Shown here piece after piece: positions 6,046 through 49,155 of a DNA stretch of 64,000 nt. Both the position numbers and the translations under genes were made by a program. The notes beneath the pieces were generated by a model that made no database searches, was not told the origin of the DNA, and saw only the letters and a program-made list of their open reading frames with translations. Each line of letters begins with the position of its first letter. Position 1 is the stretch's first letter. This stretch comes from Schmidtea nova (taxonomy: Eukaryota), in assembly GCA_044892505.1 (NCBI GenBank), contig CM097882.1, forward strand, positions 495,876,001 through 495,940,000, written 5' to 3'.

Positions 6046-6050
6046 GTTTC

Positions 6051-6420: not shown

Positions 6421-6424
6421 TTTA

Positions 6425-9600: not shown

Positions 9601-9607
9601 TTTATTT

Positions 9608-11806: not shown

Positions 11807-11826
11807 AAAACTTATGTATTTTAATA

Positions 11827-13199: not shown

Positions 13200-13450
13200 T
13201 ATGTTTTTGGATAAGAAAATAGAAAGCTAGCAATAATTCAGCGACAGGACTGTAAAATATATATGTGCTTTAGTCATTCTATTGACAGCGGGAACCCAAT
13301 AAAGAGAATATAGTGAGGAGTAATTTTGACAACAAATCTTACCAACTTACTAGATTCTCGCCATTGCGAAACTATGTGTACACGAGTGAGGAAGTAAACA
13401 TTTATGCTGAGGTGTGGGTTGTAGTCATTCCTAGAAGCCAACTCTAAATT
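13200..13450 (+). repeat. LTR fragment carrying a degenerate copy of the conserved module
   Basis: Shares ATATAGTGAGGAGTA, ACTAGATTCTCGCCA and GGTTGTA..ATTCC.TAG with 21960-22190. Confidence 0.6.
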
Positions 13451-14545: not shown

Positions 14546-15196
14546 ATGTCTATCAATGAAAAGTATGAAGATATGTGGAAGATGTTAGAAAAATATAATT
14601 TTGATATTGATCCACAGTTACAAATCAATTTAAAATGCTTAATTTGTAAACATTTATTAGTCGATGCATGTTGTGGGCTTTGTTATTGTTCTTATTGTCG
14701 GAAATGTATAATTGCTTATTTGAATAGAAATAATAAGTGTCCTGGCAATAAACCTGATTGTGAAATTGAACAACTATCTATTGAAGAAATTATTGACGAT
14801 AATGCGGCTAACTTCAGAGTATCCGAAATAATCGTCACTTGTCCAGCAGATGGTTGTCTTTATCGCGATAAACTATTATCCATTTATAATCACTTTCGAG
14901 TTTGTGATAAAAAATCAATTCCTTGTCCTTTCAATGAGATGGGATGCATGAAGGCTGATATAAAAAATGATGAAATTTCAGTCCATTTGCGCAATGAAAT
15001 CTACGATCACAGTCAATTTTTAATTGATTGGATAAGGAATATGAAAAATGAGATGACAACGTTGATAGTTATTAAGCAGCAAGAAACGGCAGAAAATGAA
15101 TTAAAAAAGTTAGAGAAGATAATTAAAGATAAAATCGAGGAAGCGTTCAATTTCGAGGATGAACATCAACTAAATGAGGTAAAGATTAACTTTTAA
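14546..15196 (+). CDS. RING finger plus TRAF-type zinc fingers plus start of coiled coil (TRAF-like E3 ligase)
   Basis: LKCLICKHLLVDACCGLCYCSYCRKCI...KCPG (RING); VTCPADGC...NHFRVCDKKSIPCPFNEMGC...HL (TRAF zinc fingers). Uninterrupted 217 codons from ATG 14546. Possible splice donor GAG|GTAAAG at 15179; no MATH domain seen. Confidence 0.85.
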   Translation: MSINEKYEDMWKMLEKYNFDIDPQLQINLKCLICKHLLVDACCGLCYCSYCRKCIIAYLNRNNKCPGNKPDCEIEQLSIEEIIDDNAANFRVSEIIVTCPADGCLYRDKLLSIYNHFRVCDKKSIPCPFNEMGCMKADIKNDEISVHLRNEIYDHSQFLIDWIRNMKNEMTTLIVIKQQETAENELKKLEKIIKDKIEEAFNFEDEHQLNEVKINF

Positions 15197-18079: not shown

Positions 18080-20032
18080 TCATTTCAACTCTTGTTTTTG
18101 ATTAAAATACTGCCTTAAAAAACACATTGTGTTTAACGTGTTATCATTTAAGCTCGACCTCAACTTGGTGCAGATCAGACTGGGTGCTGAAAACGCGCGC
18201 TCCGATTCGACACTTGTCGCTCGAACAGTCAACAACATTTGAAATGCTTTCTCTAAATATTTACCTCGGATGTTCTGTTCTTGGAAAAAGTCCATTTCCT
18301 TTTTAATAATGTTTGCTAATCCTTTACCTTTAGGTGATTTTGGGCGAGTACTTTCCAAATTCGATTTATTCATCTTCTGCTGAATTGTAAGTTGCAGCTT
18401 TTCTTTCATTGTTAACGCTGGCGATGCTGATGTTGACGGAGTTGCACGCTCATCTGAAGTACATGTTTCTGAATCTGAAATTTCAGTTTCAGACTCTTCA
18501 TTTAACGTAAGCCGTTCAATTAATTCAACGATTTTTTTTATTATCAATGGTTTTGTTGTTTTATTGAATATTTCATAATTATCATCGTCATTTCTTATTC
18601 TTACATTAATTACATTTGGATCATGGAGATAGTGCAAAATATCTGCATAAATGTTTCTCCTTTCTTTAATACGTATAATTAGAGATTCTTTAAGTTCTTT
18701 ACTTAGAAGTGTGTTTTGCACACTAAGCTCATCTAACATAAATTTCATTGTTATATCTGAAACATAAATTAACGTCTTCTCGACATAGTGCTTCCACAGC
18801 AAGTTTTACTGGTTGCAATGATGCAATTATATTTTTAAGTAAAACAACTTCATTTTCGCTGAAACTTAACTCAGATTTAATGTCGATTAAACTTTTTCTT
18901 ATTGCACTTTCAACTTCGCAGAATCTCTCTAGCATTGCACAAAGACTATTCCATCTGGTTTTTGAGTCTATGATCAAGGATAGCTCTTTGTTAAATTCTT
19001 CCTTAATATGCTTCTGTAAATTGTCGTTCTTTGTAGGGGATCTGCGAAACAATACAACTTTTCTAATTTTTGTTATTAGAGGACTTATTTCTTCATGTTG
19101 AACATCAATACAAGTGGGTACCGTATTTATTACTTCAAAGCCCACTTCATCTTCTTCGGAAATGCCTTCTTCACTTTCTAAATCGGTTTCTGTTTCATCC
19201 ACAATACTTACTTCCTCTATATGAATATCGCTCATGTCTTTTTTACGATATAAAACATTAATGACGGCTAGCTGAATGCCGTGTGCTAAACACAATTGAT
19301 GATTAGCATTAATCAACGAACCTACTTTCTTCATCACCGAAGCACCATCAGTTGTTATTGAAAAAATGTTGTCTAAAGTTAGTTTGAACTCATTTAACTT
19401 ATTTTGCAACAGCGTTATACATTTATCAGCTGGCATCGAACCATGTACTCTCACAAGACCCAAGTTCCAAAAGCGGTCATTTCCATGAACGTTTATGTTC
19501 ATATATCGTCGATTCTTAACAGACGTCCACTCGTCAAACGTCAAACTGAATACACTATTATTAGCTTTTCGGTTGGATAAATCTTCAACCACTTGTTTGC
19601 GAATTTTATCCCCATAGTCCATTACAATTTTTTTGATCGTATGGGAAGATCTTGGTACTTCTTTATTATATTTAGCTTTAATTAGTACTCGGATATCGTA
19701 GGATGTGGCAACTCTATAAAACGGTATATTATATTTTGCTGTCAAACGCGCGAGAACAGCTGGAAGTGAATCATCAACCTTTTTTATAAAGAAATTTGAT
19801 ATATTATTGTTTGTAGTGCTAGCAATGACTTTGTTTGTAATTTGACTAGATGATGCCATATCACTCTCGTCATCTTTTCTCTTCAATAGATTAATTTTTG
19901 CTGAGATTTAAGATGGGCATGCAAACCGCTAGTGCTACCACCAACACATTTAATCGGTTTCGCACAACTATTGCAGACGGCTTCATTCTTATTTGTTTCT
20001 TTGAAATAGGTCCATATTAAATTTGTACGCAT
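18080..20032 (-). pseudogene. hAT transposase (BED finger, DDE, C-terminal dimerisation domain) with two frameshifts
   Basis: MRTNLIWTYFKET..AVCNSC..IKCVGGSTSGLHAHL (BED); LTFDEWTS, ITTDGAS, CLAHGIQLA, TRWNS, ATSVESERAFS. Frameshifts near 19900 and 18770. Confidence 0.93.
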
Positions 20033-20653: not shown

Positions 20654-21959
20654 ATAATATAAAGTTTAAATTTTTACCGAAAAAACCGGTAAAAAATAAT
20701 GAATTTACCGGTTTTTCGGTAATGAATTTTTTAGCAATTTACCGGTTAACCGGTAAATCGGTTAATCGTTATTGCAAGCCCTAATTATTATTACTATCAT
20801 TATTACAATTATTATATCATAATTATCTTTTTGTTTCACTTTTGATCTTTTTTTAATATTATTAATAATTCCTATAAAGTTAGTAGGACTATAGATCAAA
20901 TTTTTTTAATATGTACGCAATATTTTGGCACAGCCTTTCTCAAGTGTGTATTATTATAACTATTATAATGAATATTATTAGTAATAGAATTATTATTAGT
21001 ATCGGTATTATTATTGTTTTTGTTTAAAATCATCAAAAGAAAATAAATAAAACGTTGTTTATACGACTAAATAAATAAAAACAAACAATTAGCAAAAATA
21101 ATAACAATAATGTATTATTACTTGTTGTGTCATTAGATCGCAATGTGATTTTGAGGTTGAGTTTTGCCGATAGGATTGATGGGGGTTGTTGTATTCTGAG
21201 TGAGACTCTGTTGCTTGAGAGGAGTGGAGCTGCTTTGTTCAGTGATTTGTTTGATCAGTGAGTTAGTTGTATTTAACTGTCATATGCATTGTTATATAAA
21301 TATAGAGGCAATTTTAAAATTTACTTTTGACAACTAACATCAAAAGAGGCACTAATAATTTGAATAAAAAATTTTAGCTATGCATATAGTTCGTTTTAAA
21401 AATCCAATAAAAACTGAAATCATAAATTANNNNNNNNNNNNNNNNNNNNNNNNNNNNNNNNNNNNNNNNNNNNNNNNNNNNNNNNNNNNNNNNNNNNNNN
21501 NNNNNNNNNNNNNNNNNNNNNNNNNNNNNNNNNNNNNNNNNNNNNNNNNNNNNNNNNNNNNNNNNNNNNNNNNNNNNNNNNNNNNNNNNNNNNNNNNNNN
21601 NNNNNNNNNNNNNNNNNNNCATTGTTATTATTGTTGAGCTGAGAGATCCACCTGAAACTATAAAACAATCATAAAAATATATAAAATAAATCATAGAATA
21701 TACACGAAAATAACCTTCAAGAGAAAATAACTCGACCTACTGGTCGAAGTCGTCTCATTGTAATGGAAATTGCAATATTGTTATGAAATAAATGTATCTG
21801 AATTTAATGGTATTTGTTTCAATGGTCTGTCAAAGATTTTAAATGCAAGCAGACCCGAGACAGTTAATAAAAGTTACATATACAGTTTTAAGAAATGATA
21901 GGTGAAAATAATGACAGCGTCAGTGAATAGAAGGTTAAGATTAAATCATACAGTGATGT

Positions 21960-22190
21960 CGTAGAGTGATTAGATACATAAGTCCTTCTATCGGGAGCAG
22001 GGACTCGAAAGAGGGGATATAGTGAGGAGTAGTTTAGTTAACGAAGCTCATCTGTTCACTAGATTCTCGCCACCGTGTACAATACCAGTATAGCTAATTA
22101 GGGAATAACTATAGGTACATGAGGTAGCCTAATCTTTATGATGGACTATGGTTGTATAATTCCCTAGAGGCAATAATCATTTTTTATCAC
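21960..22190 (+). repeat. LTR fragment with conserved module, truncated by gap
   Basis: CCTTCTATCGGGAG...GATATAGTGAGGAGTAGTTTAGTTAACGAAGCTCATCTG...ACTAGATTCTCGCCA; homologous to 13271-13363 and 34839-34913. Confidence 0.65.
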
Positions 22191-22420: not shown

Positions 22421-22789
22421 CAGGACAATCAATAATAAAATAGAAAATATGCTAAATTTAAACAAATTAATCAATAATAATCATCTCCATACTATATCAA
22501 AATTTTAATTTAAAAATTTAATTTATTTTATTTTATTACATAAAAATTTTTTTAAATTTAATTAAAAACAAACATAGAACAACATACGTATTATTTTAAA
22601 AAATAAAATTTAATTAAATAAAATTTTAACAATCAACATAAAATTTACAAATTTACAAATTTTAAAAAATTAAAATTTTTACAAAAAAAAACAAACATAA
22701 TTATACCACAAACATAATTCGCAACATTCAACCTTCGGTTACTTAAACACATTCAAAATATCAGTGGAACGGGCAACTTGATCATTTAT

Positions 22790-23781
22790 TTTTGGATTAA
22801 AATATCTAATCAACAATTGATAGGAGCTTGGGAAAGAAAACGGGAATAAAAAGGAATGAGAAATGAGGAAGGGAAACAAAAGAAATCAGACAAGGAAAAT
22901 GAAATAGAGGTCAGCACTAATTAATTAGTGCAAACAGGAAGAAATTCTAAAGTTGGGAAAAACAAAAAACAACAACAAGAATTTTATCTCGACAACCAGT
23001 CAGAGATAACGTGGGCAAAAATCAAACAAGCCGGAGCGGCAAAAGGAAACAGAGATTATCTTGACGGCTGTCAGAGATAACTCCGTTGCTGAAAAAATGA
23101 ATGGGAAATTATGTTGGAAAAATTGGAATATCAAGTGATAATAAGTGCCACAAAGGGAAGAGATATAAAAGGAGAAACACAGCAGAAGCGATCAGAAGTT
23201 TAGACAGAAGTTTCAGAGAAATTTAGAGGGAAGTTTTAACAGAATTAGAGAGAGAAGTTTAGAGAGCAGAACATAATAATCAGAACGATTTTGGGAAAAA
23301 CAGAATAGACAGAACGGAAAAACACTGCGACTAATATTGTTAAAGAGAATCAAAGGAAAAGGAAAACCGAGAATCAGAAGACGATATTTATTGGAGAAAA
23401 GTGAAAGGAATAGTGAAGTAATTCAAAGCAGAAGACTGAAAGAGAAGAGTTAAAGAAGAGTTGAAAGCGAATCGGCGTAAACCCAAGTCAAACCCAGAAA
23501 ACAACCAGTCAGATTACCAATCGTTATACCCCTCAGTGGTGAGTGATCGTTCGAGCCAAAATTTTACAAAGTGGTATTCTTCACCTTCGTGTCGTAATAA
23601 GCACCGTATAATCAATTGTTGGTCTGTTGATTTTGGTCAATTCAGTGTTAAAGACAATATTTGTAATATTCAATAAAGTTTCCAATGTTAATTGTTATTG
23701 GGGTCAATTAAAGGCACGCTTTGGAGTCAGATATTTGATTGGTAACTTTTACCATTTCACCAACAACCCCAGAACTCAACA
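22790..23781 (+). repeat. Solo LTR-like repeat, copy 1 of 3
   Basis: TATAAAAGG near 23165, AATAAA near 23673, end CCAACAACCCCAGAACTCAACA; homologous to 24060-25245 and 26084-26966. The start is approximate. Confidence 0.7.
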
Positions 23782-24059: not shown

Positions 24060-25245
24060 CAATATTATTAAATATGATAATAATAATTTAAAAATAGCTA
24101 TTAGAAAAATAAAATTAGGGAAAAATTGGCTAAACATAATACTTAATTCGAGAACGAATTTCTTTAATGGGGGAGATATGTTAAGGATACTTAAATAATA
24201 AATTAAATATTGGCACAAATAAATGATTAGGGGAAAACGAACAGGATAAATGATGTGATATTTAGAAAAACGAAAAATGAGGTTTGAAGAACAAAACATG
24301 AGAAAGGAGATGACAGTAAAACAAAGGAAATCGAACAATTAACGAAGTAAGGTCATTCCTAATCAAAAAGTACAAAAAGGCAAAAGGAATTTCGAAAACA
24401 AGGAGAAAATTATACAGTGGATTTCGGTTAATTGGGACACCGTATAATTAGGACAACTGTCTTATTGGGACATTTTCTTAAGTCCCGAAACAAATATGCA
24501 GTATAAATTCTTATAAATTTGCTATAAGATGCACATTTTGTATATTTGGGACACCTGTATATTTGGGACAAATTTTCCTGTCCCGTTGTGTCCCAATTAA
24601 CCGGAATCCACTGTATCTTGACAGTCTGTTAAAGATATCTGAATGATAGGAGAAAATTCGGAATAACAAAAAAAGCAGGACATATCTAAACAGTTGTCAG
24701 AGATAAGATGAGAGAAATAAATTTGTTTTAAGTATCACACAATTTAACGCGCAATAAAAGCAAAAGTCAGTGCAGTTGAATCAAAAGAAAAATTCGAGTG
24801 GGACTACAAATTTGTGTAATGAAGTGTTGTCGCAAGAATTTGTGAGAGAAAACTTATTGAGAAATTTATTGTGAAACGTATCGAGAGAAACTTATTGTGA
24901 AATTGATCGAGAGAAATTTATTGAGAAAAATTTGTTGAGTCGAATTTCAAGTCAAAGCAAACAAAGCAATTAGTTGGTTACCCACTGTTGAATCAAAATC
25001 AGTAGCTAGTGGTTGTTAGATGGATATTATACATGAGTGCTATTTTTCACATAAGTATCGTAATAAGAACTTTATAATTGTCTCATATTGTTGATTGATG
25101 GGACTAGTTTAATATTGAAACTAGTTGTGATATCAATAAAGATTCCTGTTGTAATTGTTATTTTATTGATTAATAAAGCACGCATTTGGAGTCAGAAATT
25201 TGATTGGTAACTTTTAAATTTTACCAACAACCCAATAACCCAACA
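24060..25245 (+). repeat. Solo LTR-like repeat, copy 2 (contains MITE)
   Basis: Shares AGGTCATTCCTAAT, AGTAGCTAGTG, GTCGTAATAA, TCAATAAAG.TTCC, TTTGGAGTCAGA.ATTTGATTGGTAACTTTTA and CCAACAACCCAATAACC with the other copies. Confidence 0.7.
24415..24613. mobile_element. Tc1/mariner-superfamily (pogo/Tigger-like) MITE, 199 bp
   Basis: 26-bp TIR CAGTGGATT(T/C)CGGTTAATTGGGACAC with one mismatch; TA duplication; internal GGGACA repeats. Confidence 0.93.
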
Positions 25246-25922
25246 AATACATTTAACAGTTAATTTCTATACACTCATTTCAGAATTTAACTCGTAGTCG
25301 ATAAATTAGATTACTTCGTTAGCCGCCTCGGTTTATGATTTAGAAATACTATTAAACTTCGGCTGATAAATTCTTCCTTCGGCAGATTCTTCGTACGATC
25401 GTACTGGGACATATCTATTATTGTACTCGGTATATTCTGGCACACATAGCGTCGGCGCGCATGTGCTTGGGAACTCTTTTGATGATCAGGGATAAAACTT
25501 CTTATCATTGGGCAAGAAAACTCCAATGTTCTGACGTTATTTTCATTCAAAATCTCTAGGATAAAAGTAGCCCGAATTTAATTGAATCTACATTCCTTAA
25601 TAATAGTTAAGATAGAAACATTGATAATGATAACAATAATAATTATATTAATATAGTACTAATATCAATCATTTTTTCAGTATTTAATTAAATTGACGTA
25701 GTTGAACAAAAGTTTATAGAACGTTTTTTCATTTCATTTATTTTGTTTTAAAAATAAATTTTATTTTTACTAAATCTTTATACTTTTCATTAATTTTAAC
25801 TAACCTAATTTATATTAGTTTTTAACTTTTGATTTTTTCTCATTTAAGCTATTAAAATTAAAATAATTAATTATAAAATTCTTTGAATTTTTCTGAATTT
25901 CCTTATTTTTAATGTATTTTGT

Positions 25923-26083: not shown

Positions 26084-26966
26084 TGGTTGAGGATACCTAA
26101 ATAATAAATTAAAAATTATCACAAATAAATAAAATGATTGGGGGGAAATGGACAGGGTAGATAGTGTAATGTTTTGAAATTCGGAGGAAAGAAGAGCAAA
26201 AATTGTGAAATGAGAAGATGGCAGCGAAATAAAAGAAATCGAACAAATAGCCGGAAAAGGTCATTCCTAATTTACAAGTGTAAAAAGGGAAAAGGAATTA
26301 CAAAATCTAAAACAAAAACAGGATGAAAGTTCATATCTTGACAGCTTGTCAGAGATATCAGGATTGCAGGAGAAAAAGTCGGAATAACAAAAAAGGGAAG
26401 CATGGCATATCTCGACAACTGTCAGAGAAAAGGCATAAGCTACGGAGAATGCTAGAGGCAAAAATGGAAAAACAAATTTATCTCAAGTATCACAAATTTG
26501 ACGAATTATAAAAGGAAGAAACAATAGTAGACCAGGGAGAAGATAGTGTGAGATTCAAAAAGGAAATCCGCGAAGAAAATTGAAATTTAGAAGAATCAAA
26601 GTGTATTATAAGAAAACGTGAATTAAAGGAAAACTTCAGAAAATTGTAGTGAATTTAGCAAACTAAGAAATTAATTGAATAAGAGTCAAAGTTTATTAAG
26701 CCAATTGGTCTGTTACCCATTGTTAATCTAAATCAGTAGCTAGTGATCGTTAGACGGGAATATTGTACACGAGTGTTATTCCTCACAGAATGTCGTAATA
26801 ATCACTGTATAATTATCTGTCATATCATTGAATTGGTGAAACCAGCTGTGCTATCAATAAAGGTTCCGGTTATTAATTGATATTTTATTGATCAAGTAAA
26901 CACACTTGCAAGAGGCAGAGAATTAATTATTAAATTTTAAGTTTCACCAACAACCCAATAACCAAA
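26084..26966 (+). repeat. Solo LTR-like repeat, copy 3
   Basis: Same conserved blocks as copies 1 and 2. Confidence 0.7.
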
Positions 26967-28365
26967 AAAATTTTCTTGTGTTTTTTGTTTTTGATGTTTG
27001 TTCAAATACTTTAATATAATTCTTGCGCGGTATCTATGTGCTGTTATCGTTTGCTTTAAACAAAATTAGTTGGCTTCAGTTTTTATCCAACAATTTTGTC
27101 TCATCGAAAGTTTTGACATAACCTCTTTAAATCCCATGGAACAAAGACCATGAGTCATAACAAAGAGTATTACGCAGCTTCTATTAGATTCATGACTCAC
27201 CACGATGACTTATTGCTTCAGGGGTAAGTAATTCCATTGTGGGCCAAAGAATATATCTTACTACTAAAGAGCATAAAATAAGCACTGAATTAAAATTTAA
27301 AAGATTTAATAAATATGAATTAACAATGAAATTGAGTATTTCTACGTTATTGGTTTTAAATTTTCGATTATTTAATAAATAAATTTAAATGACTTATTTA
27401 CCTGACAAAAGCCAATAAGCTCTTAATGGGCCTTTATTGAAATTTAGAAAACAAAAAATTTTCTACAGTAAATTTAATATTAGATGTGCAGTACAGATCA
27501 AAAAAATCAATAAAAAGGATTGCCTATAATGAAAGAATTATAATTATACATCAAAACTCATTTAATTAGAATCACCTTGAACTTTTTTAATACTATGTAA
27601 TCGGGACATACATTTTTTTACATTGGTTTTTACAAACAATATTTCAAAAGTTTTTTTGGCTTCATTTTCATTATTTCAAATCTAGAATCATGAAGATTTT
27701 ATGTTTCTTATAAATCTGAGTAAATACTGAAATATTTTACATTTTCGTTATGTATTTGTAGGTGTCAAAGTGGCGGTCTTCAACATTTTACTACTTTTAG
27801 TCAAACTGAAGAATAGAGATAACTAATTATCAAAAATTATTCTCAATAACAAAAACAATTAGTAGATTAAACTTTTAAGTTTTTTGGGATAAATTTTGGT
27901 TTGATGTGAAAAAGTTTCTTTAACTTTTTGCAAGCATTAAAAAATAATATTAATATACAAATGGTCGACTTTAGTCGATTTAAGCGTAAAAGGGTTCAAA
28001 ACAAAATTTTTGTTATGTAATTTTTTAAAATAATAATGTAAATAAATAAAAAGTCTTATCTTTTATGATGAAGCACGCGAATTTCTTGGGTTCTAAGAAT
28101 TTCGACAGGAATCAGAGCTTTACATGGCTCCTCGCATTCATTTATTTAATAAAACAACTCAACAAAATACAAATTTTATTTTCGTTGTAATTGAATTAAA
28201 TCCATAAAAATTAACAATTAATCTCGATACAATTGAAAATTGAGCAAATCTTGACTAAGTTTACTGATGTTTAATTTTCCTTAATGACAAATGATGCTTT
28301 AGTTCTATTCAATCTCGTTTCAATTGAGTTTTTGTTAAGAATGCACTTTTACACTCTGTTGTTTA

Positions 28366-29463: not shown

Positions 29464-30150
29464 TGTTGGGGTTGTTAAAATAAATTTAAAATACACAATA
29501 TGAAAATTGGAAAAATAATAATTAAAGTTCAAACATTAATTAAAATTTATAAAATTCAAAAATAAAGATTTAGAGGCTGAAACTAGTATGGGAGGATGCC
29601 TAATGATGAGACGAATTCAAATATTGGTATGTAAAATTAAAAAGGGGCCCCAGAAAGAAATATTAAGAAAATACAAATTAATTAAAATAATTAATTACCT
29701 AATGGGAAACCCAGGCGTCAACAAATCTATTAATTAAAAAATAAACTGACTAATTGAAGAGTGCCCGGGTAAAGAAGCCGCAAACACACTTAGCGGCAAC
29801 TGCCAATTTAATTAATCATTTGACAGTTTAATTAAGGTGTGACAGAACTGAGCGACAAGGTACTATATAAACGGATAGCAATTTGCCGAAATTGCCAGTG
29901 TAGTCGAAGCAAAATTTAAAAACTTGAGTGAGGATCGGAAAGGACGAAAAGGAAGTTTTAACGGTAATTGCAAGTTAGTGTTGATTTATCAATTTTCCCT
30001 GCTTACAAGAAAGGGACATCTTCAATTGGGTCTTCTTCCCTAACGCAAGGAAATTGTAGAGGATATTATACTTTGTAACTGTGTAATTAAAAGTGTGTTT
30101 AACTAATTTGAAAATAAATATTATTGTGTTGAGTTGAAACTCTCAGTAAA
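29464..30150 (+). repeat. LTR-like repeat upstream of gag remnant
   Basis: Starts TGTTGGGG; TATATAAA near 29864; AATAAA near 30114. Confidence 0.55.
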
Positions 30151-30152
30151 TC

Positions 30153-31588
30153 AATATGGAGGTGATCTGGTGGAATTCGTTGACTTTATGACAGACTATA
30201 ATATGTATGCTATGGCATATGGATAGAGCCAAGCGACAATGGTGCAAAGTCTGCCACTGTTTTTAAAAGGAGCAACAAGGGAAGTCTGGCAACAAATAGA
30301 TAAAAGAACAATTGCTAATGACTGGACAAAACTGAAAGATGCCTTAGTCGCAAAGTTAATTGGAGGAAATATATAACGGATAATGTGGCAGTAGTTCTAT
30401 AATCGAGTGCAAAAATCAGACGAATCGGTAAATGAATTTGCGTACGACTTGACAACTCTTGCAGATAAAGCATTCTAAGTAAAACCGAAACAGATTGAAG
30501 TGGCAAAGCAGGTAAAGGAATTGTTACAAGACCAGTTGTTAACTAAAGTCTAAAAGGAGATCAAAAAAGCCTTGTTATGTGGATTTCAATAAGTTTGATG
30601 AATTGATCAAAAAGGCGATGAAAATCGAGTGGAATTTGAAAAGCTCACAGCCAAAATCAGAATCGTTTGCCATCATTAATGAACCCAGAGAAAGATCCAT
30701 AACTCCAGTCAAAAACAATCGGCTTCAGCAATCAATTAGTCCATCACCAACGTTTAGACAAAGGTTTGAGTCGAATAAATCAACAAATGTTCAAATTGAT
30801 GAAAAAGAGAAGCCAATTCAATGCAGCCATTGTCAACGGATAGGACATCATGTCAATCAATGTTGGTTCAAAGATGTATCTCCAAAAAGTCCAACTCCAA
30901 TCCAGTGTGATTATTGTCAAAGTATGGGACATTACAGCAATCAGTGTTGGTCTAAAAATAATGTTCAACGAAGCCCAAAACGAATGTGGCCAGATTGGTT
31001 GAAGGGTAGCGGTGAGAAAAAGTTTTAATAAAATAAATATTAAAGATCAGCGAACTAATGATAATGTGCAATGCTACAATTGTGGAATGAAAGGACATGT
31101 CTCACGGAACTGTTTTGCTAGATCGAGGTCTTCATTGCCATCCCCACAAAGAGATAAAAATGAACTTTCAAAGCCAAATTCAATGCCATTCATGTAGAAG
31201 CTATGAACACATGGCTAGATTATTCCCGAGAAATGTCGACAAATTTCAGAAACCTATATTGAAAAAATCAATTAGATTCCAAAATGATAAAATGCAGATA
31301 GACAATGTGGCTTTTGTTCAATCAGATGATTTCAATGAAAAGATTGAAAATCAATTGAAAGAAATGGGTCGACGTTTGGATCGTCTAATGTCCAAGTTCG
31401 AATCCGATGATGAATTGAATAATCACATGATGTATGGATCGCAGCAAGATATGGCGGAAGCGGAAACGAAAGCTGTAAGTACAAATGACGATCTTGAAAG
31501 TGAAAAAGCTACATTGATGATAAAAAGACTTGAAAAATTACTAGAAGCCAGTGCGGAAGAATCATCTAAAATATTGGTATCGATATAA
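30153..31588 (+). pseudogene. gag: Ty3/Gypsy gag remnant with four zinc knuckles
   Basis: YGGDLVEFVDFMTDYNMYAMAYG*SQATMVQSLPLFLKGATREVWQQ...FYNRVQKSDESVNEFAYDLTTLADKAF (capsid domain, five stops in about 145 codons). Knuckles: CSHCQRIGHHVNQC, CDYCQSMGHYSNQC, CYNCGMKGHVSRNC and a degenerate CHSCRSYEHMARL. Confidence 0.88.
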
Positions 31589-34010
31589 AAACTGAAGTCT
31601 AATGTCGTTGAGTATGAGGAAATTGAAAGGCAGGATTAATTTTTGTGCTAATTATTATCAAATAAATGTAACAAAGAGATGAAATTAAAGAATTTATGAG
31701 AAAATTTGAAAAATATTTTCAGGAAAATAAATGGTTAGATTTTATTTTTATTTATGTTGTTAATAAAAGTGATAAAAATGTGATTACGTGTCGCTGAGAA
31801 GCCTATGATAGCGTAAAAGATTTAAAAAGGGAGACTAAGAGAGAAATGTAAAGGATGGGTGGTCGAATTAAAATTTAAAAATAGAGATTTAGAAAATTAT
31901 GGTTATTTAATAGACTGTGGTTTCATACCAGGAAATAAAAATGAATTACAAATAGCCAGTATGATGAGTAACTGTGAAATGATAAAAAGTGATTCGATGG
32001 AAATAGTAAGGGGGCTATCTGAAGTTTATATATTGGTGACGAAAACGAAATTAATGAAATAGAAAAATTAATTGAGGAATCTGAATTTTGGCAAAAAGAA
32101 AATTTATTTGAGGATTTCCACAATTTTCAATAGTAATATCTCTAAATTAATAACATAAATTTTACTGTTAATCCGTAATTCGATAAGTCGCTATTACATC
32201 TGACAAAAGCGGAAATTCATGCAAGAAATGTCATAGAAATTCGCAACCCCCTATTTACAAAACTCACCTGAACTATCGGCTAAAAATCCAGAATCCCCAA
32301 TGGTTTTACTTTGTACCAAATCATGCATGCCCACCTCACCGGTAATTTTAAAAGTTCTTATCAATTGTAGTCATTATGTAGTTGTTTCGATGTACAATAA
32401 ATTTTACCCAGTCGGATAATGTAATCTCCAGGATTTACGATAACAAACCTCAACTCAGATCAAAGTGTAAAAATTAGATTTAAAACGATATAAAACTTCA
32501 AACGGTATGCTGGCGTAGGATGAAATACCTACCAAAGTAATGCCAAAATAATTATACTGAATGAATATAAAAGAAAAAGGTAGTCATAAAATTTGATACA
32601 TTATAAATGAAAAATTGGAAAATTGAGAACTCGATTGAAAGAATTTAACTAAAAAACAAAATTTATTTTTCCAAGAATTATATGAACTAGTATTTATTTT
32701 CCGAAAATATCTGAGAACAAAATTTTTCTTAAATTAAAAATTTTATCGGGAATTAATTTTATAAAAACTCTTAAATAAATGTAAAATATTACCATAAAAT
32801 TACTTGGGAATTAAAAATACCAGCTAAAAAAATCTCTTGAATAAATATAAAATATTACCAGGAAATTGTTTGTGAAATAAAAATACCAACTCAAGAAATT
32901 TAATAAAATCAAAAGGCATCTTGATCAAATAAAATCAGATATAATAGTCATAGATTAATGTTTCTTCGGAAATCCACGAGAACACTCCCCGAGAATGGGG
33001 GTTCAATTCGAAAGAATGCGAGATTCCCTCATAAATTTTTGATAATGATTCCATTCATGAGGATCAACAAGAAAAGTCAAATTGTTGATTTCTTTTCTTT
33101 TTCTTTGCTAAGGCTTGAGTTCCGTTTTTTGAGTTGATGGCAACTTTGCTGAGCCATGAATGATCCGGGTGATGCTAGGAGTGATTATGAGAGATTAAAC
33201 AGTAAAAAAAGAAAAATAAGATCTTACGTTTTTGTCCAATTTGAAGATGGAAATCTCCGTTACTAAAAATATAATAATGAATCAATAAATTTCATTATGT
33301 AATAAAGCATACTATAATGAATTCAACCAATAGGGATTGATTATTTTTTGCTCCCCAGTTATATAGTTATGCTTCTCGTTGGGGGAACGCCGATATTTCT
33401 GGATGAAACTAACCCGAGACGGTGTTTCCTAGTGTAACATTCTGGTTGAAACCTAAAGTAAAATTTAAATCTCCTAAATTCAGATAAATTTTTTTTAACT
33501 TGAAAAAGAAATATATTATGAGAAAAAATTGACGTCGTTACCGTCGCTAATGTCTCGGCGATGATTTAAATTCATTGCATAAAATTTTGATAAAATCTTA
33601 AAATAAATTTGAAAATAACAAGATAGACATTAGGTATAAGGGATAAGTGAAATTTTAGTTAAATTTACCAACACAAAAATATACAAATTTTAAAAAATCT
33701 TGAAAATAATAAAAATTTAGCTAAAATCAACAGACATCGTATACCCAAATATATGTGATAATCAAAGATTTTTCGATCCCCGAATTGAGTTTGTGATGAT
33801 GTTTGAGTATAAGCTTACAACTAAAATGACTGCGAAAACTCCTGTGTTTTGAGATAATATTGTGTATAATAGTTGTTTGTGAAAAATCAATAAATTTTCA
33901 CCGATAAAATTATTTCATCTTACTAATTTTAAACTGAATATTTAAAATTAAATTATAGTGCTAAATGATGGCTTAAATGTGCTTTGAATGTGTGATTTTA
34001 GATTTCAGAA

Positions 34011-34565
34011 ATGAACCTTGACCAAAAATTTGAAGAGATGCACCGGTTGATTTTGGAAAATGCCCGACATAATCGCCGGGTGGATCAGTGCTTCGCCGAG
34101 CTGGAAAAGGCAAAAGCATCCAATTCCGACGCTTTGCAAATCATGACCTCCAGGATGGAGAAATTTCGAGCGCGGTGCGGAGATATGGAGTCGACCTGGT
34201 CCGACAAGGAGACCGTCGACAGATTAAAGAAGCAGAACCAGATGCTTCTACAACAGGCTGCAGAGGACGCGAAGCGATTACGCGCATGCCGTGTTACGAT
34301 GCGAGAGCAGGAGCTCTTGATCGAAAAATTGAGGGTGGATAGTGACATCATCGCTGCCATCTTGCCGAAATCATCGTTCCCACCCCAAGAGCTGTTCCCA
34401 GTAAGGGTCGAAGAAGAGATCCTGACACCTCCGGTGCCAGCGAAATTGACACGGCAGAAACCCAACAAAGGAGTGAGGGCTCGACGAAGACGTCGCCAAG
34501 AAGCGCGATTGCTGGGGCAAATACGCAAAGAGTCCTCAGAAGTTATAGACATTACGTTATTGTGA
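34011..34565 (+). CDS. Orphan 184-aa coiled-coil protein with Arg-rich C-terminal tail
   Basis: Uninterrupted and markedly more GC-rich than its flanks. ATG is preceded by TTTTAGATTTCAG-AA (splice acceptor); tail KPNKGVRARRRRRQEAR. Confidence 0.7.
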   Translation: MNLDQKFEEMHRLILENARHNRRVDQCFAELEKAKASNSDALQIMTSRMEKFRARCGDMESTWSDKETVDRLKKQNQMLLQQAAEDAKRLRACRVTMREQELLIEKLRVDSDIIAAILPKSSFPPQELFPVRVEEEILTPPVPAKLTRQKPNKGVRARRRRRQEARLLGQIRKESSEVIDITLL

Positions 34566-35500
34566 TTTGAATCGAACAATAATATTTTATCTTGTAGATA
34601 ATGTTGTATTTATTACCTTATTTTGTAGTTTATGTTTTTTTGTTGATGACATTAAAGGTTTTTCTTTTGTGTTTGAAATGTTTATTTGTTTGAATGCGTG
34701 AAGAGAATAAATTGATAAAAAACTGACACTCATTTTTGTGAAGAGAATCAATCTGGGGTTCAGTAGTAAATTTAATTCGATATAACTTATGATTTTTTTT
34801 TGAAAGCAAATAATGCATACAAGGGACAAAATGGGCATTAAACCTTCTATCGGTAGCCCTTGGACCCAGGAGATATTCGGTCAATCATAGTTTCGTATTG
34901 ACGACGCTCACTGATTGCGAATACCCACCCATTTGTTGCATTACCAACGTTACATTGTGACGGACAACAAGATAGCTAATCTAATGTTTTATGTGTTGAG
35001 TTGTTGATGTGAGCCATAGCAACGTCAAGGTCATATTGACGATCAACAACCCACCACATGTATGGTAACTATTCATATGTGATTTAATTAAAACAACTAG
35101 GTTAATATATTATTTAAACAAGCATATTTATGTTAATTTACCTGTAATTTAATCTGTGACAAAAACAAAGATGGATTAATATATAGAATATAATTATTGT
35201 ATAAATGATTACTTAATTTTCTTTAAACAATGATTTTTTATAATAAAGAATAATTCTAATAAGATAATTTTTTATAATATAAAATCCAATAAAAATCAAA
35301 TTTATTTTTATTGATCCATGACCGATAGCAACTAAGAAATAATATATAAGCTGTTTACTTTTTCAGTGGAATACCCCAAAAATTGGGTAAGTTCTGATCA
35401 TAAGTTCTGATGCACTGGTAGCAGTTTAAATAGAATTGGCCCACGACAGCTATTCACTACGAATTTAATTCACGACACTTGTATATAACTTTAAAGTTAT
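34561..35500 (+). repeat. LTR-like region downstream of orphan ORF with conserved module
   Basis: Module at 34821-34913; TATATAA at about 35345 followed by TCAGT at about 35365, with spacing similar to 8651-9600 and 16630-17579. Boundaries are approximate. Confidence 0.45.
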
Positions 35501-41221: not shown

Positions 41222-41356
41222 ATGACTATAGATCAAAATTTTTTTTATAAACAATAACACAATATTTCGGCACAGCCTTTATCAATACACACTTGATAAA
41301 GGCTGTGCCGAAATATTGTGTTATTGTTTATAAAAAAAATTTTGATCTATAGTCAT
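41222..41356. repeat. Perfect 64-bp inverted repeat with 7-nt loop abutting an N gap
   Basis: 41222-41285 is the exact reverse complement of 41293-41356. The sequence is also homologous to 20817-20952. Confidence 0.95.
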
Positions 41357-42560: not shown

Positions 42561-44461
42561 AACAAATAAGTTTTTAAAAATAATAAGAATAAGAATACAG
42601 ACTTAACGATATTTAAAGAGAATAATTCCATGTTAAAAATTCTGTATTACTACATATTTTTTTCCTCCAGTACCGGATATTTGTTTCGTTGATTTTGTTG
42701 TCGATGTGCATGATTCAGTCCTTGTCTTCATTGTGATCAGATTTCTACCGTTTCTGTTCTCAGTTATCATACTTTGCATTTATAGGATGTTTTACATTTC
42801 CGTTGCGCCGATAGAAGATGTGTGTGATTTGTGTGTAACTTTCTTTTGTGTTGGAATTCGATCAATCGGCCTAACGGATTCACCCGTTTCTAAAAATGCA
42901 TTAATGCATTGGTATTAGGTTTTACTTTCGAACTCAAATAAATGACTCATTTGAACGGCTAAGTAAATAGATTTATTAATTATCATTAGTATAACAGATT
43001 ATTCTCGACTGTCAAATATATCAGTATTTTTAATAAAAAATAATTATCACTTTTTCGAACGCATCAACTGTTTAAAAATCAGTTTGAAAAATGTACCCTT
43101 GATAAACTTAGTCAATTCTGAAAACTTTGATATCGATTTATTGTGTGATTTTTTATAAAGAAATAAACGTTACTATATGTTGGATTGTGTATTTTTGATA
43201 AAGGAACGCGCGGAATCAGTAAAGTCAAATCATACCAATACTAGTTAATAAGCCCAAAATAATTAATTACAACTTTAATTATTTTTATTAAATCAATTTA
43301 TTATAAGTTTTTCAAGTAATAACATAATTTAAAATACATTTAAATCGAGTTGCGACTTTAATTTGCGAAAATATGATATAAAACATTTTCTAATTAACTA
43401 ATTGTATAAAAATTGATCTTTCCAATTGTCCCGAGGTAAAATAAAATTCATAAAAATATTTTAGAGACTTCGTCAGTATAATATGGATCACACTTTTTAA
43501 GGTCATTGCATTTTCACGTTTTTGCTGAAAATTCTATCTATTGCTATTTTGAATTTTATTTCAGATATTAAATATTTGAATTCATAACGTTTAGCGAAAT
43601 ATTTTTTTTTGAATTATAGATATTATTTGTATTACTGCCATTATCCAGTTACGATCTATGAAAATTTTTATTTCAGTATAAATGTCTTATTAATTATAAC
43701 TTAAACATAAAATAATCATGAGGAAAAAATGTTGTTAATATTCAAATTGTAAAATAAATTGCTTCACGATAAATTAATTTAAAAACAGAAAATTTTTATT
43801 ATCGAAACAAAGTCTAGGCTATTTATTTAAAGTTTTATGTCAATGAATTCTCAATATAAATTGAGCAATTCCAATACACTGAAAAATAATATCAAACTAA
43901 TAAATCTCAATATATAGAAGAGTAAATAAACATTGTAATACATGTGGAGAATTTCAATACAAGAAAATAAATATCGTGTAAAAGAATAAAAAAAATGCAT
44001 TTTTTTTAAAATTATTTTTATAATTTCAGTTCTTTATAAAAAAGTAAGGACCTAGATCGCAATTTCAAGGAGAGTAGCTCGAAATTTGAAATATTTAATT
44101 ATATATTAATATTATTAAATAAATTTAAAATGATTATCTCTGTGCTCTATCGTGTCTTAGTGTCTTAGATTAATTAAAAAAAATGGTCGAGTGATTTAAT
44201 TTATCTTTATTTTTATTGTATTTTTATGACTTTTCTAAGTTTATTTTTTGAAATATTTATTTTTTTTTTGATTTTTAAGGAATTTTTAAAAAAATCAATT
44301 CATCGAGCTATACAAACTTTTGTATGTCTTTTGCTTCTGTCAAACTAATTTAAAGTATTTTGTTTTGGCTTAACACTTAGTATCAATTGTTACATTTTTA
44401 TCTCTCAATTTTTGTGTTATAGATACATTAAAAAATACTGTACAAAACAGATATTTTCAGC

Positions 44462-44464
<3 letters not shown>

Positions 44465-44540
<76 letters not shown>
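44465..44540. repeat. (TA)n microsatellite
   Basis: About 38 TA units. Confidence 0.98.
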
Positions 44541-44543
<3 letters not shown>

Positions 44544-44544
44544 T

Positions 44545-45376
44545 CCATTTTGTCTAATAACTTCTTCATAGTGCTTAAGTTCATTTGTTAATTTCTCTGG
44601 GTTAAACTGAGCTTTCAAATCTTGAAGACACTGCTCAGTTTTATTGTTATTTTCAAAAAAATTTGCCTCTTCGAAAGAATTTGAAGTTCATAAAGATGCA
44701 TCGATCTTCAACATTCATATCAAGGGAATAAGCTGGTTGACACAATATCTTAATTCCTTTATGGTTTAAAAATTTTCTAGTGACAATATCTTCATACGGA
44801 GTATCATTATCATGCATACACACATTTGAATGTCTTCGTACACTAACATAACGTTGAAGCTCAAACTAGCACCCACCAATAAAGTTTGACGCAAAAATCA
44901 TATCAACCTTCTAATGGGAACTTGCTAGTCTTGCCAAACGCTGTCGTTAATTAAGGAACCATGAAAGGTGTTGGCTACGAATATATTTTTCTTGGCATTC
45001 AGATGTTGACAGGATTCTAAAAGTATACGATATCGTTCAATTCCTGCTCCCTTCTGCTCGTCAGTCAGGTAATAAGGAACCAATTTTCCAAAGACAGGCT
45101 TGAGTTTCAATTCATTTTTCAATACTCCTCTTTATAAATACAGTTATGGATTCCAAACTAAGCTGCTTATTCTTCGCAATTAGAGTAACGAGAATTAAAA
45201 TGTCACTTACATATATTTATGGCGTTATGTCAGATCCTTCATTCTTGCCACCATATTCTACACACCGTGGCTTATCTCAGTTGAATACTGTCTTACTCTT
45301 GCCAGAGGCAATGTTTTCATTAAGCAAGGCATTTTTTAAATATCTGTGAATAACTGCTGCTGAAAAGTCGTTCTTT
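44545..45376 (-). pseudogene. mariner (DD34D-type) transposase remnant
   Basis: ILKNELKLKPVFGKLVPYYLTDEQK (W/LVPHEL motif); HDNDTPYEDIVTRKFL..KGIKILCQPAYSLDMNVED (HDNA.PH, HPPYSPDLAP.D). Confidence 0.75.
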
Positions 45377-46705
45377 GTCATGGCCATGTTAAAAAATTAA
45401 CGTTTTTAACAGATATCGAAGTATGTATGCGTATATCTGTGATCTTAAATTGAGTTGGTATAAAAAAAGCAAGATTAACAAATTTTCATTATTTAAAAAA
45501 ACTATAGACCAATATTCTTTTAAAGTTACGAATTTTAGACAAAGCCTTTTTTTGAAAATAATTTTTAAAGATAAAGAAAATTCCTGGAATATAAATGAAA
45601 AGATCAATGGTGATAATAAGAGATGTTAATGATAAGATCAACAAAATTCAATAGTTTCTAATTATAATAACAGTTTTTAATAATAGTGTTTAATAATGAT
45701 AAATAAACAAATGCTAAATTTAAATAATTATTCCTACCAGTCTACTGTGCTAAAACGGAAATCTTTTTGGGACACCCTATATCAATATTACTTAAACTTT
45801 ATATAATTATTAGACCTGAAATTTTAATACAATGAGTGTTGAATTATGGTCAAAGGATTATAGATAAGTATTTGGAAACAAAGTTAATTCCAGTAGAGTT
45901 GAATTTTTCATTACCTTTGTTATTTGTGATAACTAAAATATTACCCATTCGAAGAAACTTTTCAAAATCATACTCGACATTAAATTCTAGCCAGGAGTGA
46001 TTATATCACAATTTCCATATCTTTATATGTTACGAAAATTTCCAATTATTTCTGGAAATAGAACAAGTTCCAGATAATAAATTTTAATATCAATATTAAT
46101 ATTTCCAAACAAAAAAATTTCATCTATCGAAAATTTTCAAAAAAGATGTTATAAGATGGGTGAGTAATAAAAATTTTAAAGCTAAGATACTGCATGATAG
46201 GGTACAACAAATGCAGAATGAATATAAACATACAAATCAAGGATTGAGTCGAGACTTCAAAGATGATTTTAAGAATTCATCAACAATCCGATTTATTTGA
46301 CAATTATATTCATTGTTTGGTCAATTTATTGACATTGAAAATTTGTTTTGACAATTTATTCTTGTGATGTCATTTTCATAATTTTTGGATTTTATTTTTG
46401 TGATGTCTTTGTAATGACAATTTATTAAATTATTATTTATAATAACAATTTATTTTATTTTATGTGATTATTTGTAATAACAATTTATCATTTTATTCTA
46501 TTGATTTTTATTTTTATGTGTTAAACATGGCAACGATTTAATTAATGAAAAAAGCACAATGGTATCCAGGGTCTGGCCCCTCATATGTATTTATAAAATA
46601 TTGATAATTAATTAAACCCTCTAGTGGCTATTTAATTATTTTATAGATATTTATCTTTATTTTTTGTTATTATTCAGTACCGAAAGCTGTTTTCGAAATT
46701 TCAGT

Positions 46706-46809
46706 TGACGCAAAGCGTCATCAAAATTAAAAATAATCTCTTTAAGAGTAATTTATAATACAATCGACGCAAATCGTCGCTAAAATTAAAAATAAGCTCT
46801 TTTAAGAGC
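46706..46809. repeat. Two tandem ~59-bp units, each with two short hairpins
   Basis: TGACGCAAAGCGTCA / CGACGCAAATCGTCG, each followed by AAAATTAAAAATAA and CTCTT(T)TAAGAG. Confidence 0.8.
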
Positions 46810-47469
46810 AAAATAATAATAATAATATTTATAATAATAAACATAAATGAATATATATTTTTAAATATCAGTTTGAAAGTGTTGAATTGGGTTTTTATTT
46901 TTTAAAACATCTGATTTAAATTTGTTTCAGTAATTTCATCACAAATTCGGGTAATCAACATAATAAATTGATATTTGATTAATAACATGTAAATTCACAA
47001 AAATTCACAGCAACAATATTTCTGATTTAACTTACCTCTATCATCAATCCTCCACAGATATAAACAAAATCATATTTCACGAACAATAATAGTAATAAAA
47101 ATATACATTAATGATAACATAAATATAATAATAACAAACATTAATATTAATAATTATGAATATCGAAGAAAAAATTATAATTAATTAAAATCTTCTCATT
47201 TTTTATTTTATCACATCAGATAATGGTCGCTTCGGTTAAAAATTCCCATAAATTAAATATACAAATTAAAACAAAAAATCAAATTTTTTAAAACAATTAA
47301 TTTAATATTAAATACAATTTTAAAAAAATTTAAATAATGTCATTTGCCATTTTTACTAACAAATTGATATCATCTCTATTTTAGACAAAATTTCCCATTA
47401 ATTTCTAATTTATATCAATTATTTTATTTTAAATTATTAACTTTTATTTAGTCATAAATTTCCCTTACG

Positions 47470-49155
47470 CAGGGTCGTTTCCCTTACGCCTAGGGCCTAC
47501 GAACAAAATTAAATTAAATTTTTTGTTTTTTTATCAATTTGTTGTAATGTTGTTGATTGATTAAAAATAAAAAATAAACAAGAAATCAAAATTATTCTCT
47601 ATTAGTTAAGTTGGGTTGCTCGACAGTCTACACAGTAAACTAAATTATATGAACTTTGCGGCTCTTCGCATGAGCGAAATCCCAAATAACATCTTCAAAT
47701 GACATTTCCCTCATAAAATCGTGCAAGAGAAGAAGTGCAAGAGAAGACAATCTTTCTTGTCCCATCGTTGAACGCAGATAGTTTTTGATTAGTTTCAGTT
47801 TTGAAAATGATCGTTCACCTTCACAACTTGATCCAAAATTGAAAGATAAATTCGATAAGCAATATTTACATTTGGAAAACTTGTGACCAACTTGTTTTCT
47901 ATTTAGGCTTTCATCATTTCCGAAACAGAGTTTATGTCGGCGAAAATTCGGGAAAACAAAAGAAATTCATCAGCGAATGCCTCTTCCATATCTGATGAAT
48001 AGATCTTAATTAATTCATTTGCTTTAGAAACTATTTCATCACATGACAAAGATCTGTCAAGAAGAAACTGAACCTAAAATGTAATGCTGCGTATGCTGCT
48101 CGCCGTTTTTCATCTCAATTATAAGTCTGTCTATGATCACGTAGAAAGACTGGATACGGAAATGTTCACTAGCACTCAAATTTAAACTGGCATCATCAAT
48201 GTTATCATCATCCTTAACTTCATGAAATCTTTTTCGTTTGCGTTTTTGTACATTCTTTGTAATCGGATTTTGTAAGATCTTTTGTCATACTTTCAAACAC
48301 TTCAAATTTATTACGTGTATCACGAAAGTGTTCTGTCTTGTTTTTATCTTGTTTCCAAATTGTCTACCCTTCAATAGGAAATCACTTTCTAAACTCTGCG
48401 AAGGGATATTCTCTGAATAATAGCTATAAGATCTGCATTTACTTCCAATTCCGCTAGATCACTGACTCTTCATTCATTGTTGTTCCTCGTTTTGAAATCT
48501 TTGCTGCTTGATAGTTCTGGATCTGGATCATCCAATTGTAGCTTTTTATCTTTAGCCTGTTATATCTGTTCTGGTTTTTCATTAATAACATCTGCATCAC
48601 ATTGTTTGGTAGTCTTGCTCGAGGATATTTCTGGTATTGAGACATTGGTCGCGACAATTGTGTCATTATTAAGGTTATCATCAATATTTAGATATTTTAG
48701 CAAGGAACCCTTCATCTGTTTTAATGCTTCCTCTTTCACTTGTTTTTTCTTTCGTTTTTCAGATCCATACTCGTGTTTTCTTTTGTATCCATCAAACATG
48801 ATTTCAACTATTTATAATTACTAATTGGTAAAATATTAAAAAATTCTAAATCATTTTTATTTTATCTAGACGAAATATTTGTAAAATGGAAAGTAAATAA
48901 AATGTTACAAAAAATTAATTGAGATTAAAAATATCAAAATCTGGGTGCATTCATAAATTCTTTTTCAAAACAATAGTCAAAACAATCTCGTCAAAAATGC
49001 TGTAAACGTTTTTACAATTTATATTAGTCATTACTTAATAATTAGTACAGAATTAAATTTAATCAATTTGAGGCCTACAAGGCTACAAATGCTGCAATGC
49101 AGATATCCAAATTCTAAAAGTGTCTAGGGCCTACGACGACCTTAAAACGGACTTG
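47470..49155 (-). mobile_element. Internally deleted hAT (ZMYM/TTF-finger-associated type)
   Basis: Ends CAGGGTCGTTT / AAAACGGACTTG; 8-bp TSD CCCTTACG / CCCTTATG; TAGGGCCTACG subterminal motif at both ends. N-terminal KRKHEYGSEKRKKK and C-terminal FPNVNIAYRIYLSI..SSCEGERSFSKLKLIKNYLRSTMGQERLSSLALL; catalytic core missing. Confidence 0.9.

Follow-up and report, generated by a model that had tools for sequence, protein, structure and literature searches.

Rev-like proteins such as HIV Rev, EIAV Rev, HERV-K Rec and MMTV Rem combine an arginine-rich motif (ARM), a nuclear export signal (NES) and, mostly, a coiled coil (PMC5568270). The route by which unspliced RNA is exported alongside spliced RNAs is known for few long terminal repeat (LTR) retrotransposons, and the protein-based case found in our searches is CERV, a spliced accessory protein of the LTR element Cer1 of C. 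elegans, which exports unspliced RNA (PMC10309623). Spliced third open reading frames (ORFs) of LTR elements, including coiled-coil types, are already known (PMC5408684, PMC11952523). Here we analyzed ORF B (34011-34565, + strand, 184 aa), which lies in an element called unit B (29464-35056, +) in 64,000 nt of Schmidtea nova DNA (GCA_044892505.1, contig CM097882.1, positions 495,876,001 to 495,940,000); this whole stretch is called the window, and all coordinates refer to it. A second ORF of the window, ORF A (9608-10165, -, 185 aa) in unit A (9205-12587, -), is a probable distant homologue, and a protein from a public contig, P0003, is a clear one. We are highly confident that ORF B is a real gene of a retroelement and that it is accessory.

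Like the Rev-like proteins, ORF B encodes a protein that is small and helical and has an Arg-rich motif and a predicted coiled coil, and it is an acceptor-led ORF near the 3' end with a conserved non-coding segment nearby. ORF B is not a Rev family member, however, because it has no detectable homology to those proteins and no conserved NES; in addition, its ARM is C-terminal, its helices are much longer, its element, in which neither env nor pol was seen, is not a retrovirus, and no stable response element was found in the nearby segment (PMC5568270). With CERV it shares the status of an orphan accessory protein of an LTR element, CERV being made from a spliced mRNA and having leucine-zipper-like helices and a nuclear localization signal (NLS). 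CERV is a protein of 517 aa with a Cys loop and M and G domains, and its five exons are shared in part with gag (PMC10309623), whereas ORF B has 184 aa and a single coding exon, lacks a Cys loop and carries an Arg-rich tail. The ORF3s of bdelloid LTR elements (env, transmembrane (TM), GDSL, DEDDy and coiled-coil (CC) types; PMC5408684) are also family-specific third ORFs, typically separate spliced units, with a coiled-coil type among them. ORF B lacks their enzyme and transmembrane domains; this comparison is by description and not by sequence, and the word "arginine" is absent from the main text of that paper. The FAST-like sORF1/sORF2 of MDG1-group elements (PMC11952523) are two small accessory ORFs per element, as in unit A, with a polybasic sORF2 and a nuclear sORF1, but they have 63-110 aa, lie mostly 5' of gag and are unspliced, and the transmembrane helix of sORF2 is absent from B, A and P0003.

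ORF B and its broken gag

An earlier interpretation made from the letters alone, the sequence-only reading, had described ORF B as an open frame of 184 aa, GC-rich against its flanks, with an acceptor just before the ATG and with a TW motif, a Pro-rich linker and an Arg-rich tail, and each of these points was borne out. The ORF listing gave 34011-34565 as open, with a GC content of 0.51 against 0.24 upstream and 0.33 downstream. The candidate splice acceptor TTTCAG is at 34003-34008 (+), 2 nt ahead of the ATG (TTTCAG-AA), with another AG at 34000-34001, and the TW motif, linker and tail are all present in the translation. GC at third codon positions (GC3) was 0.59 in ORF B and 0.32 in two gag pieces, and an ORF of such length appeared in 0/2000 base shuffles of the region. 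An antisense ORF of 155 aa (34085-34552, -) lies inside ORF B and is probably a by-product of its GC content.

Searching 1.84 billion representative proteins with phmmer gave three matches to ORF B, of which the sole true homologue was P0003 (E 8e-5), a 157-aa protein from a 638-nt ENA contig that has a near-identical twin; the others, P0001 and P0002, were dropped as Ig/cadherin repeat artefacts. In pairwise BLASTP, ORF B and P0003 were identical at 42/122 positions (34%, E 1e-12), and their global alignment score was reached by 0/3000 shuffles of both kinds. P0003 keeps the ESTW motif, a second helix ending in I-x-P and the basic tail. Relatives were also seen at the nucleotide level: a paralogue stretch behind 34360 (3 public contigs, set X1) continued in frame with 8/10 residues kept, 7/8 of them through silent changes as counted by eye, this being a short stretch and one among 24 listed of 3346 loose ends. 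One contig differed from ORF B at 46/320 nt within the ORF, gap-free. The silent-biased stretch, single and short as it is, has the pattern of purifying selection, and because of P0003 and this stretch we called ORF B coding.

The same bias was found for gag. Upstream of ORF B lies a broken Ty3/Gypsy-type gag (30122-31585, +) with a capsid-like domain carrying 5 stops, 4 zinc knuckles of the CCHC type (one degenerate), a coiled-coil tail and 3 frame changes; it matched Retrotrans_gag PF03732 above the cut-off (E 4e-6, with X at stops). The five early stops that had been reported are present, all within the first 155 codons (30122-30586), and the remaining 333 codons hold none. At two of the five, nearly all public contigs read otherwise, so those breaks are largely private to the window copy. 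At a gag loose end (7 contigs, set X2), 7/10 residues were kept, 5/7 by silent changes (by eye). ORF B therefore looks like an ordinary gene, in a family in which gag, too, was under selection. The claim that B had been retained while gag decayed is weak: ORF B would be intact beside the broken gag with p 0.06-0.09 under equal decay, and gag relatives show the same silent bias. The reported absence of reverse transcriptase (RT), RNase H (RH) and integrase (IN) held, as neither tblastn with the window's intact pol nor Pfam found them in unit B. No pol match was obtained in 31590-33600 in 3/3 frames, and none better than E 0.2 in units A or B; the missing pol of unit B may have been deleted. A possible integrase C-terminal remnant, noticed by eye at 32200-32520 or inside unit A, was not supported by tblastn or Pfam.

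Further relatives of the ORFs were scarce. Word-based searches gave 0/119 candidates for ORF B and 0/112 for ORF A; a profile of B, P0003 and P0004 recovered P0003 alone (1/3025) and no further ORF copies in 858 six-frame pieces of the window; and in IMG/VR the ORF profile matched 0/99 stretches and gag 0/17. ESM Atlas returned unnamed or generic coiled-coil clusters only, the first match for P0003 being a zgc:113691-like one (0.95, 157/256 features), an unconfirmed lead. No Pfam family matched ORF B at the cut-off, with HMG_box_5 at E 0.06 only. Searches of Pfam, PDB, BFVD, ESM Atlas and the literature yielded no description of the family, although subscription papers, Repbase reports or supplements may describe one. 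The homologue P0003, the gag and the terminal module described below support ORF B as a genuine accessory ORF of its retroelement that occupies the same slot as A. ORF B is best explained as an accessory gene that a retroelement family of the Ty3/Gypsy type itself encodes.

Units A and B, their terminal module and the relationship of their ORFs

Unit B, 5593 bp long, forms a TGTTGG...CCACCA envelope whose inverted ends are short and imperfect and whose flanks are CATAT/CATGT, a possible 5-bp target site duplication (TSD) with one mismatch. It contains a TATA-like box of putative function (29864-29871, +), a putative first exon without ATG (about 29890-29963, +), a candidate 5' splice donor ACG|GTAATT (29961-29969, +; one of two pattern matches in 29860-30140), and AATAAA (34706-34711, +) in a T/GT-rich 3' region. 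Unit A measures 3383 bp; its envelope, TGTTGG...CCAGCA, has AATG as the flank at either end, and it contains a TATA near 12000 and a candidate donor at 11871, but no gag was found in it. Ahead of ORF A it has a second acceptor-led ORF (10414-10977, -; 187 codons, two internal TGA stops, GC1/2/3 0.55/0.42/0.52), for which we found no Pfam match and no counterpart in unit B. A 119-aa ORF (10798-10439) overlaps this second ORF and is open in another frame. In each unit a TATA 400-600 nt in is followed by a donor-like site ~100-130 nt on, an acceptor-led ORF, AATAAA and the module.

LTR hallmarks are TG..CA short inverted repeats, TATA, AATAAA and a TSD (PMC3601003). These occur once per unit, at its two ends: the inverted ends measure about 6-13 bp and the TSD candidates agree at 4/5 positions in B and 4/4 in A, although the right ends depart from YNYAACA (PMC3601003). 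The left ends of A and B are weakly alike (12/596 background windows as good), and the promoter regions have no detectable likeness (91/621 as good). Repeat searches found no direct or inverted repeat between the ends of either unit. As a polypurine tract (PPT), no purine run before TGT was found in 32001-34010, and for a primer-binding site (PBS) there were two CA..TGG candidates, one inside gag codons, with no tRNA matched. A PPT, a clear PBS and a second LTR are missing from both units. In a control Gypsy element at 601-6045, an LTR pair, PBS and PPT were all seen by the same tests. With TG...CA, TATA, donor, ORF, AATAAA and a probable TSD, each unit reads as one LTR-shaped envelope, the hallmarks of a single LTR extending over its full length. 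The units may be giant solo LTRs; they may be what is left of two-LTR elements, or chimeras of these; or they may be elements with a single envelope that are moved by their ends. The claim of at least two LTR lineages is an assumption, as there is no LTR pair or pol by which to place A and B. Other element types were compared. No left-end repeat was found near the right end, as a DIRS-like internal complementary region would have. Ginger DNA transposons (PMC2836005) share TG...CA ends, a short TSD, introns and the lack of an LTR pair, but they have terminal inverted repeats (TIRs) of 40-270 bp and an integrase-like transposase, whereas units A and B have the short inverted ends given above and no integrase, and B has gag; membership was rejected on TIR length and transposase. 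No link was drawn between units A/B and Burro elements (PMC6431247, PMC8532177).

The downstream module that A and B had been said to share was confirmed. The last ~230 nt ahead of the right end are related in the two units, with a block of 17 of 18 nt, and 0/1000 shuffles reached the B-A score. The module of unit B (34821-35056, +) is non-coding, has a small ACC-UUCUAUC-GGU hairpin and is extremely repetitive in public contigs; that of unit A lies at 9205-9452 (-). When the B module was compared with 2744 background windows, the four best matches fell in copy C (scores 94.5 and 88) and in A (86 and 85), ahead of a next-best score of 82, and at the 600-nt scale A barely topped the background (194 vs 190.5). 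Copy C (21955-22190, +; 0/1000 shuffles as good) lies between assembly gaps and has no detectable ORF, and copy D (13245-13470, +; 2/1000) is weaker, close to C and without an ORF upstream. An ORF tail considered upstream of module C was rejected, with 368/1000 shuffles as good and no profile match. In both units the TGTTG start is repeated 65-80 nt before the right end (34990-35056, +; 9285-9205, -), after a TTTTATG stretch, and in unit B this repeat closes a predicted terminal hairpin. In the region 21140-22190 (+), TATA-like promoter sequence is followed by an assembly gap and then by AAATAAATGTAT and module copy C, possibly a third such unit cut by gaps. At 12590-13470 (+), on the strand opposite to unit A, module D directly adjoins that unit at its left end, and A may have inserted into a D-type element.

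Summed contig depth in sets X2-X4 was ~0.8-1.1 million for the module, 3,300-7,100 for ORF B and 1,700-3,300 for gag (this is not copy number), and contigs identical to the unique flank had a depth of 7-13. A sharp border was found at 35056, with 290-334 loose ends per set. The module is hence the end that the members of a very large family of repeats share. Pattern searches with 17 nt of the module gave 9 viral and 76 metagenome matches, none extending past the pattern, and no ORF match at E <= 1 was found at the 84 loci holding it. Rfam had no match at gathering level, only four chance rows (E 3.6-9.1), and no HDV-like (hepatitis delta virus-like), twister or hammerhead ribozyme was recognized by eye from consensus patterns. 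An outer stem of the hairpin (GGGC/GCCC in B, CCAC/GTGG in A) is possibly compensatory between A and B, in two sequences only. Two further observations concern the left end of unit B. In X2-X4 the summed depth of segment 29490-29704 (+) was 44,000-53,000 and far exceeded that of the adjoining sequence; a joint there skips 29557-29639, and the segment is a short high-copy piece. A single contig in X3 and another in X4 join the module end to unit-left-like sequence (35033 / 29618), possibly from head-to-tail or nested copies. Set X1, of unrecorded kind, differed from X2-X4: its contigs matched the window exactly over 34076-34662, left the unique flank uncovered and gave the module low depth only. 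An RNA library could look like this, but absent cover and contig depth cannot demonstrate it, and we did not count it as evidence of expression.

Because the module is widespread, sharing it shows related elements and not related ORFs. It is not confined to units with an ORF, being found also at C and D (near 21981 and 13272), which have no detectable ORF. The claim that the two ORFs share length, architecture, acceptor, position and module stood for slot, length and module; the acceptor of ORF A, however, is TTTTAG immediately 5' of the ATG, and its linker is Ser/Thr/Asn-rich.

The anatomy of the three proteins can be compared directly. ORF B is in the gag sense near the 3' end of the element and has two heptad-rich helices and an Arg-rich tail, which P0003 and A also have. 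AlphaFold placed helices at 3-63, 66-117 and 153-176 in ORF B, with a break after TW and a disordered Pro-rich linker before the Arg-rich last helix (predicted template modelling score (pTM) 0.30; the input alignment included A), and at 2-41, 44-110 and 144-158 in ORF A folded alone (pTM 0.23). Both models break just after TW, and in both the Arg-rich tail is helical, with ~35 disordered residues between it and the coiled coil. A comparison of predicted structures, which had been suggested, thus gave agreeing helix patterns from models of low information. The hydrophobic share at heptad a/d positions in the helices of ORF B was 0.76 and 0.71, against 0.39 and 0.44 overall, values inflated by taking the best of 7 registers. 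As a sequence feature, the 15-residue basic stretch contains 9 (B), 10 (A) and 8 (P0003) K/R, and the net charges are +8, +13 and +13. No transmembrane segment was found in B, A or P0003 (maximum 19-residue hydropathy 0.85, 1.03 and 0.11). All three have the same landmark order: TW, then [LI]xP after 55/51/55 residues, then a G-basic tail.

We regard ORF A as probably an old homologue of ORF B in a sister family, an estimate that rests on the global alignments, the P0003 motifs and the landmark order together with the shared slot. The B-A global score was reached by 10/2000 and 8/2000 shuffles, by 15/3000 and by 132/3000 windowed shuffles. A column profile of B/P0003 gave A a global score of 25.3, reached by 7, 16, 34, 92 and 20 of 3000 in five shuffle schemes (p 0.002-0.03), while reversed A and 6/6 control ORFs scored below zero. 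Overall the global tests gave p about 0.002-0.04; several scoring schemes were tried, so the best of these values are optimistic. P0003 shares ESTW with B and, as noticed after the fact, TWFxP and RExI...[LI]RP with A, in order. If A and B were unrelated, two helical, basic-tailed ORFs would have reached the same slot independently, which would fit any function and which we consider possible but doubtful. For this speak all of the local comparisons: BLASTP gave E 24, the hidden Markov model (HMM) of B, P0003 and P0004 gave A 1.1 bits (reached by 1133/5000 full and 865/5000 windowed shuffles), and hhalign gave 1.3%. In addition, A and P0003 aligned globally no better than 183/3000 and 291/3000 shuffles; neither the ORF DNA (122/200 shuffles as good) nor the regions upstream (89/200) are similar between A and B; the module is far commoner than the ORF; and lineages gain accessory ORFs independently (PMC5408684). 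The proposal that B belongs to the same family as A is thus made probable by global alignments, motifs and slot but not by local BLASTP, HMM or hhalign, and the profile comparison called for earlier failed locally and succeeded weakly in global mode.

Possible functions of ORF B

By analogy, the likeliest function of ORF B is that of a spliced, oligomeric, arginine-rich RNA-binding regulator similar to Rev or CERV, a reading that we hold tentatively. On this model, a short non-coding exon downstream of the TATA box would be spliced to the acceptor before the ORF B ATG, skipping gag(-pol). The protein would oligomerize through its helices, enter the nucleus by its basic tail and bind RNA of its own element, with the conserved 3' module as candidate target, and intron-containing genomic RNA could thereby leave the nucleus or escape splicing, like that served by Rev/Rec/Rem or CERV. 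If gag is spliced out, the element must still export unspliced RNA. Candidate donors and acceptors are present in both units as site patterns only.

Several results weigh against this regulator. Among the 15 joints listed of 160, none joined donor to acceptor. NES-like patterns occur once in B and twice in P0003, where they do not align, and not at all in A. Neither Pfam nor PDB sequences gave a link to Rev-like proteins, and Foldseek returned 0 viral and PDB matches at E <= 0.001. Basic tails also mark plain NLSs and DNA-binding regions. As LTR pair and pol are both missing, an RNA in need of export was not seen in the window, and the homology of A and B fails three local tests. The folding energy of the module is ordinary (z -1.18 and -1.31), its hairpin has a pair probability of ~0.8 in B and 0 in A in context, and no common fold was found for the four copies; its position behind AATAAA and at the element border fits a U5/att role equally well.

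The same anatomy of coiled-coil helices and a basic tail would also suit a particle- or ribonucleoprotein (RNP)-associated nucleic-acid chaperone or scaffold for packaging or transport instead of nuclear export, and the net charges and the lack of an NES common to all three proteins agree with it. The likeness to P3/VAP of caulimoviruses points the same way. Caulimovirus P3 is virion-associated (PMC5670102), and coiled-coil ORF3 types are found in bdelloid retroelements (PMC5408684). We consider a chaperone rather unlikely, since the four knuckles of gag already provide for RNA packaging, an exon that is GC-rich and spliced separately would better suit an early regulatory product, and no fold match was obtained. 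A nuclear regulator at the level of DNA or chromatin is unlikely as well. Such a protein would transactivate the promoter of the unit or counteract silencing, dimerizing through the coiled coil and using the tail as an NLS or as a basic helix that binds DNA. The tail is predicted to be helical in both models, MDG1-group elements have a nuclear accessory sORF1 (PMC11952523), and the module keeps its sequence better than its fold, which would be expected of a DNA site; but the disordered residues split the tail from the coiled coil, unlike in bZIP proteins, no DNA-binding family reached the cut-off (HMG_box_5 as above), and the A and B promoter regions are not detectably alike. ORF B might finally be captured GC-rich cargo or a chance frame without a role in the element, as its base composition differs from gag, its intactness alone gives p 0.06-0.09 and the 155-aa antisense ORF overlaps it. 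This is very improbable given the homologue in the + frame, the silent-biased paralogue stretch, the absence of such an ORF among 2000 shuffles and the lack of any matching host gene family.

A wider form of the Rev- or CERV-like reading would make A, B and P0003 an old undescribed Rev-like family of a non-vertebrate Gypsy-type lineage with the splicing plan of complex retroviruses: a single 5' donor, at most two accessory exons on the 3' side and, as response element, the conserved 3' cis module, in a lineage that may be a single LTR-shaped envelope around gag. We think this improbable. If true, it would mean a convergent pair of Rev and Rev response element (RRE) outside Retroviridae, and the element ends would need an undescribed replication route.

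Other features of the window and implications

The window is AT-rich and repeat-dense. The Gypsy element at 601-6045 (+) is young: its two 222-bp LTRs were scored as 100% identical, and it has a PPT and a PBS-like TGG start. Its 874-aa ORF encodes RT-RH-IN, while gag and protease are each split up. At 22760-23780, 24179-25253 and 26085-26970 (+) lie three related pieces resembling solo LTRs (families D5, D6 and D10), whose ends, of the CCAACAACCC type, are like that of unit B. A 216-aa ORF (14546-15196, +) has weak RING and TRAF zinc-finger matches below Pfam cut-offs. Transposase-like ORFs are found at 18080-19859 (-; DUF659 E 5e-5) and 6574-7098 (-; Tc1/mariner-like by eye), and a perfect 64-nt inverted repeat with a 7-nt spacer is at 41222-41356.

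LTR elements with accessory 3' ORFs are already known as a class, and the ORF B family is absent from the libraries searched. If its function is mundane, ORF B is one more orphan accessory ORF of this class and still helps to annotate the repeat family. A small Arg-tailed protein, a candidate spliced message and a conserved cis module make up a testable protein-RNA pair. If ORF A is homologous, the system would be old enough to have lost DNA similarity and yet kept its slot. The module is apparently a very abundant repeat, so a protein that binds it could touch many loci.

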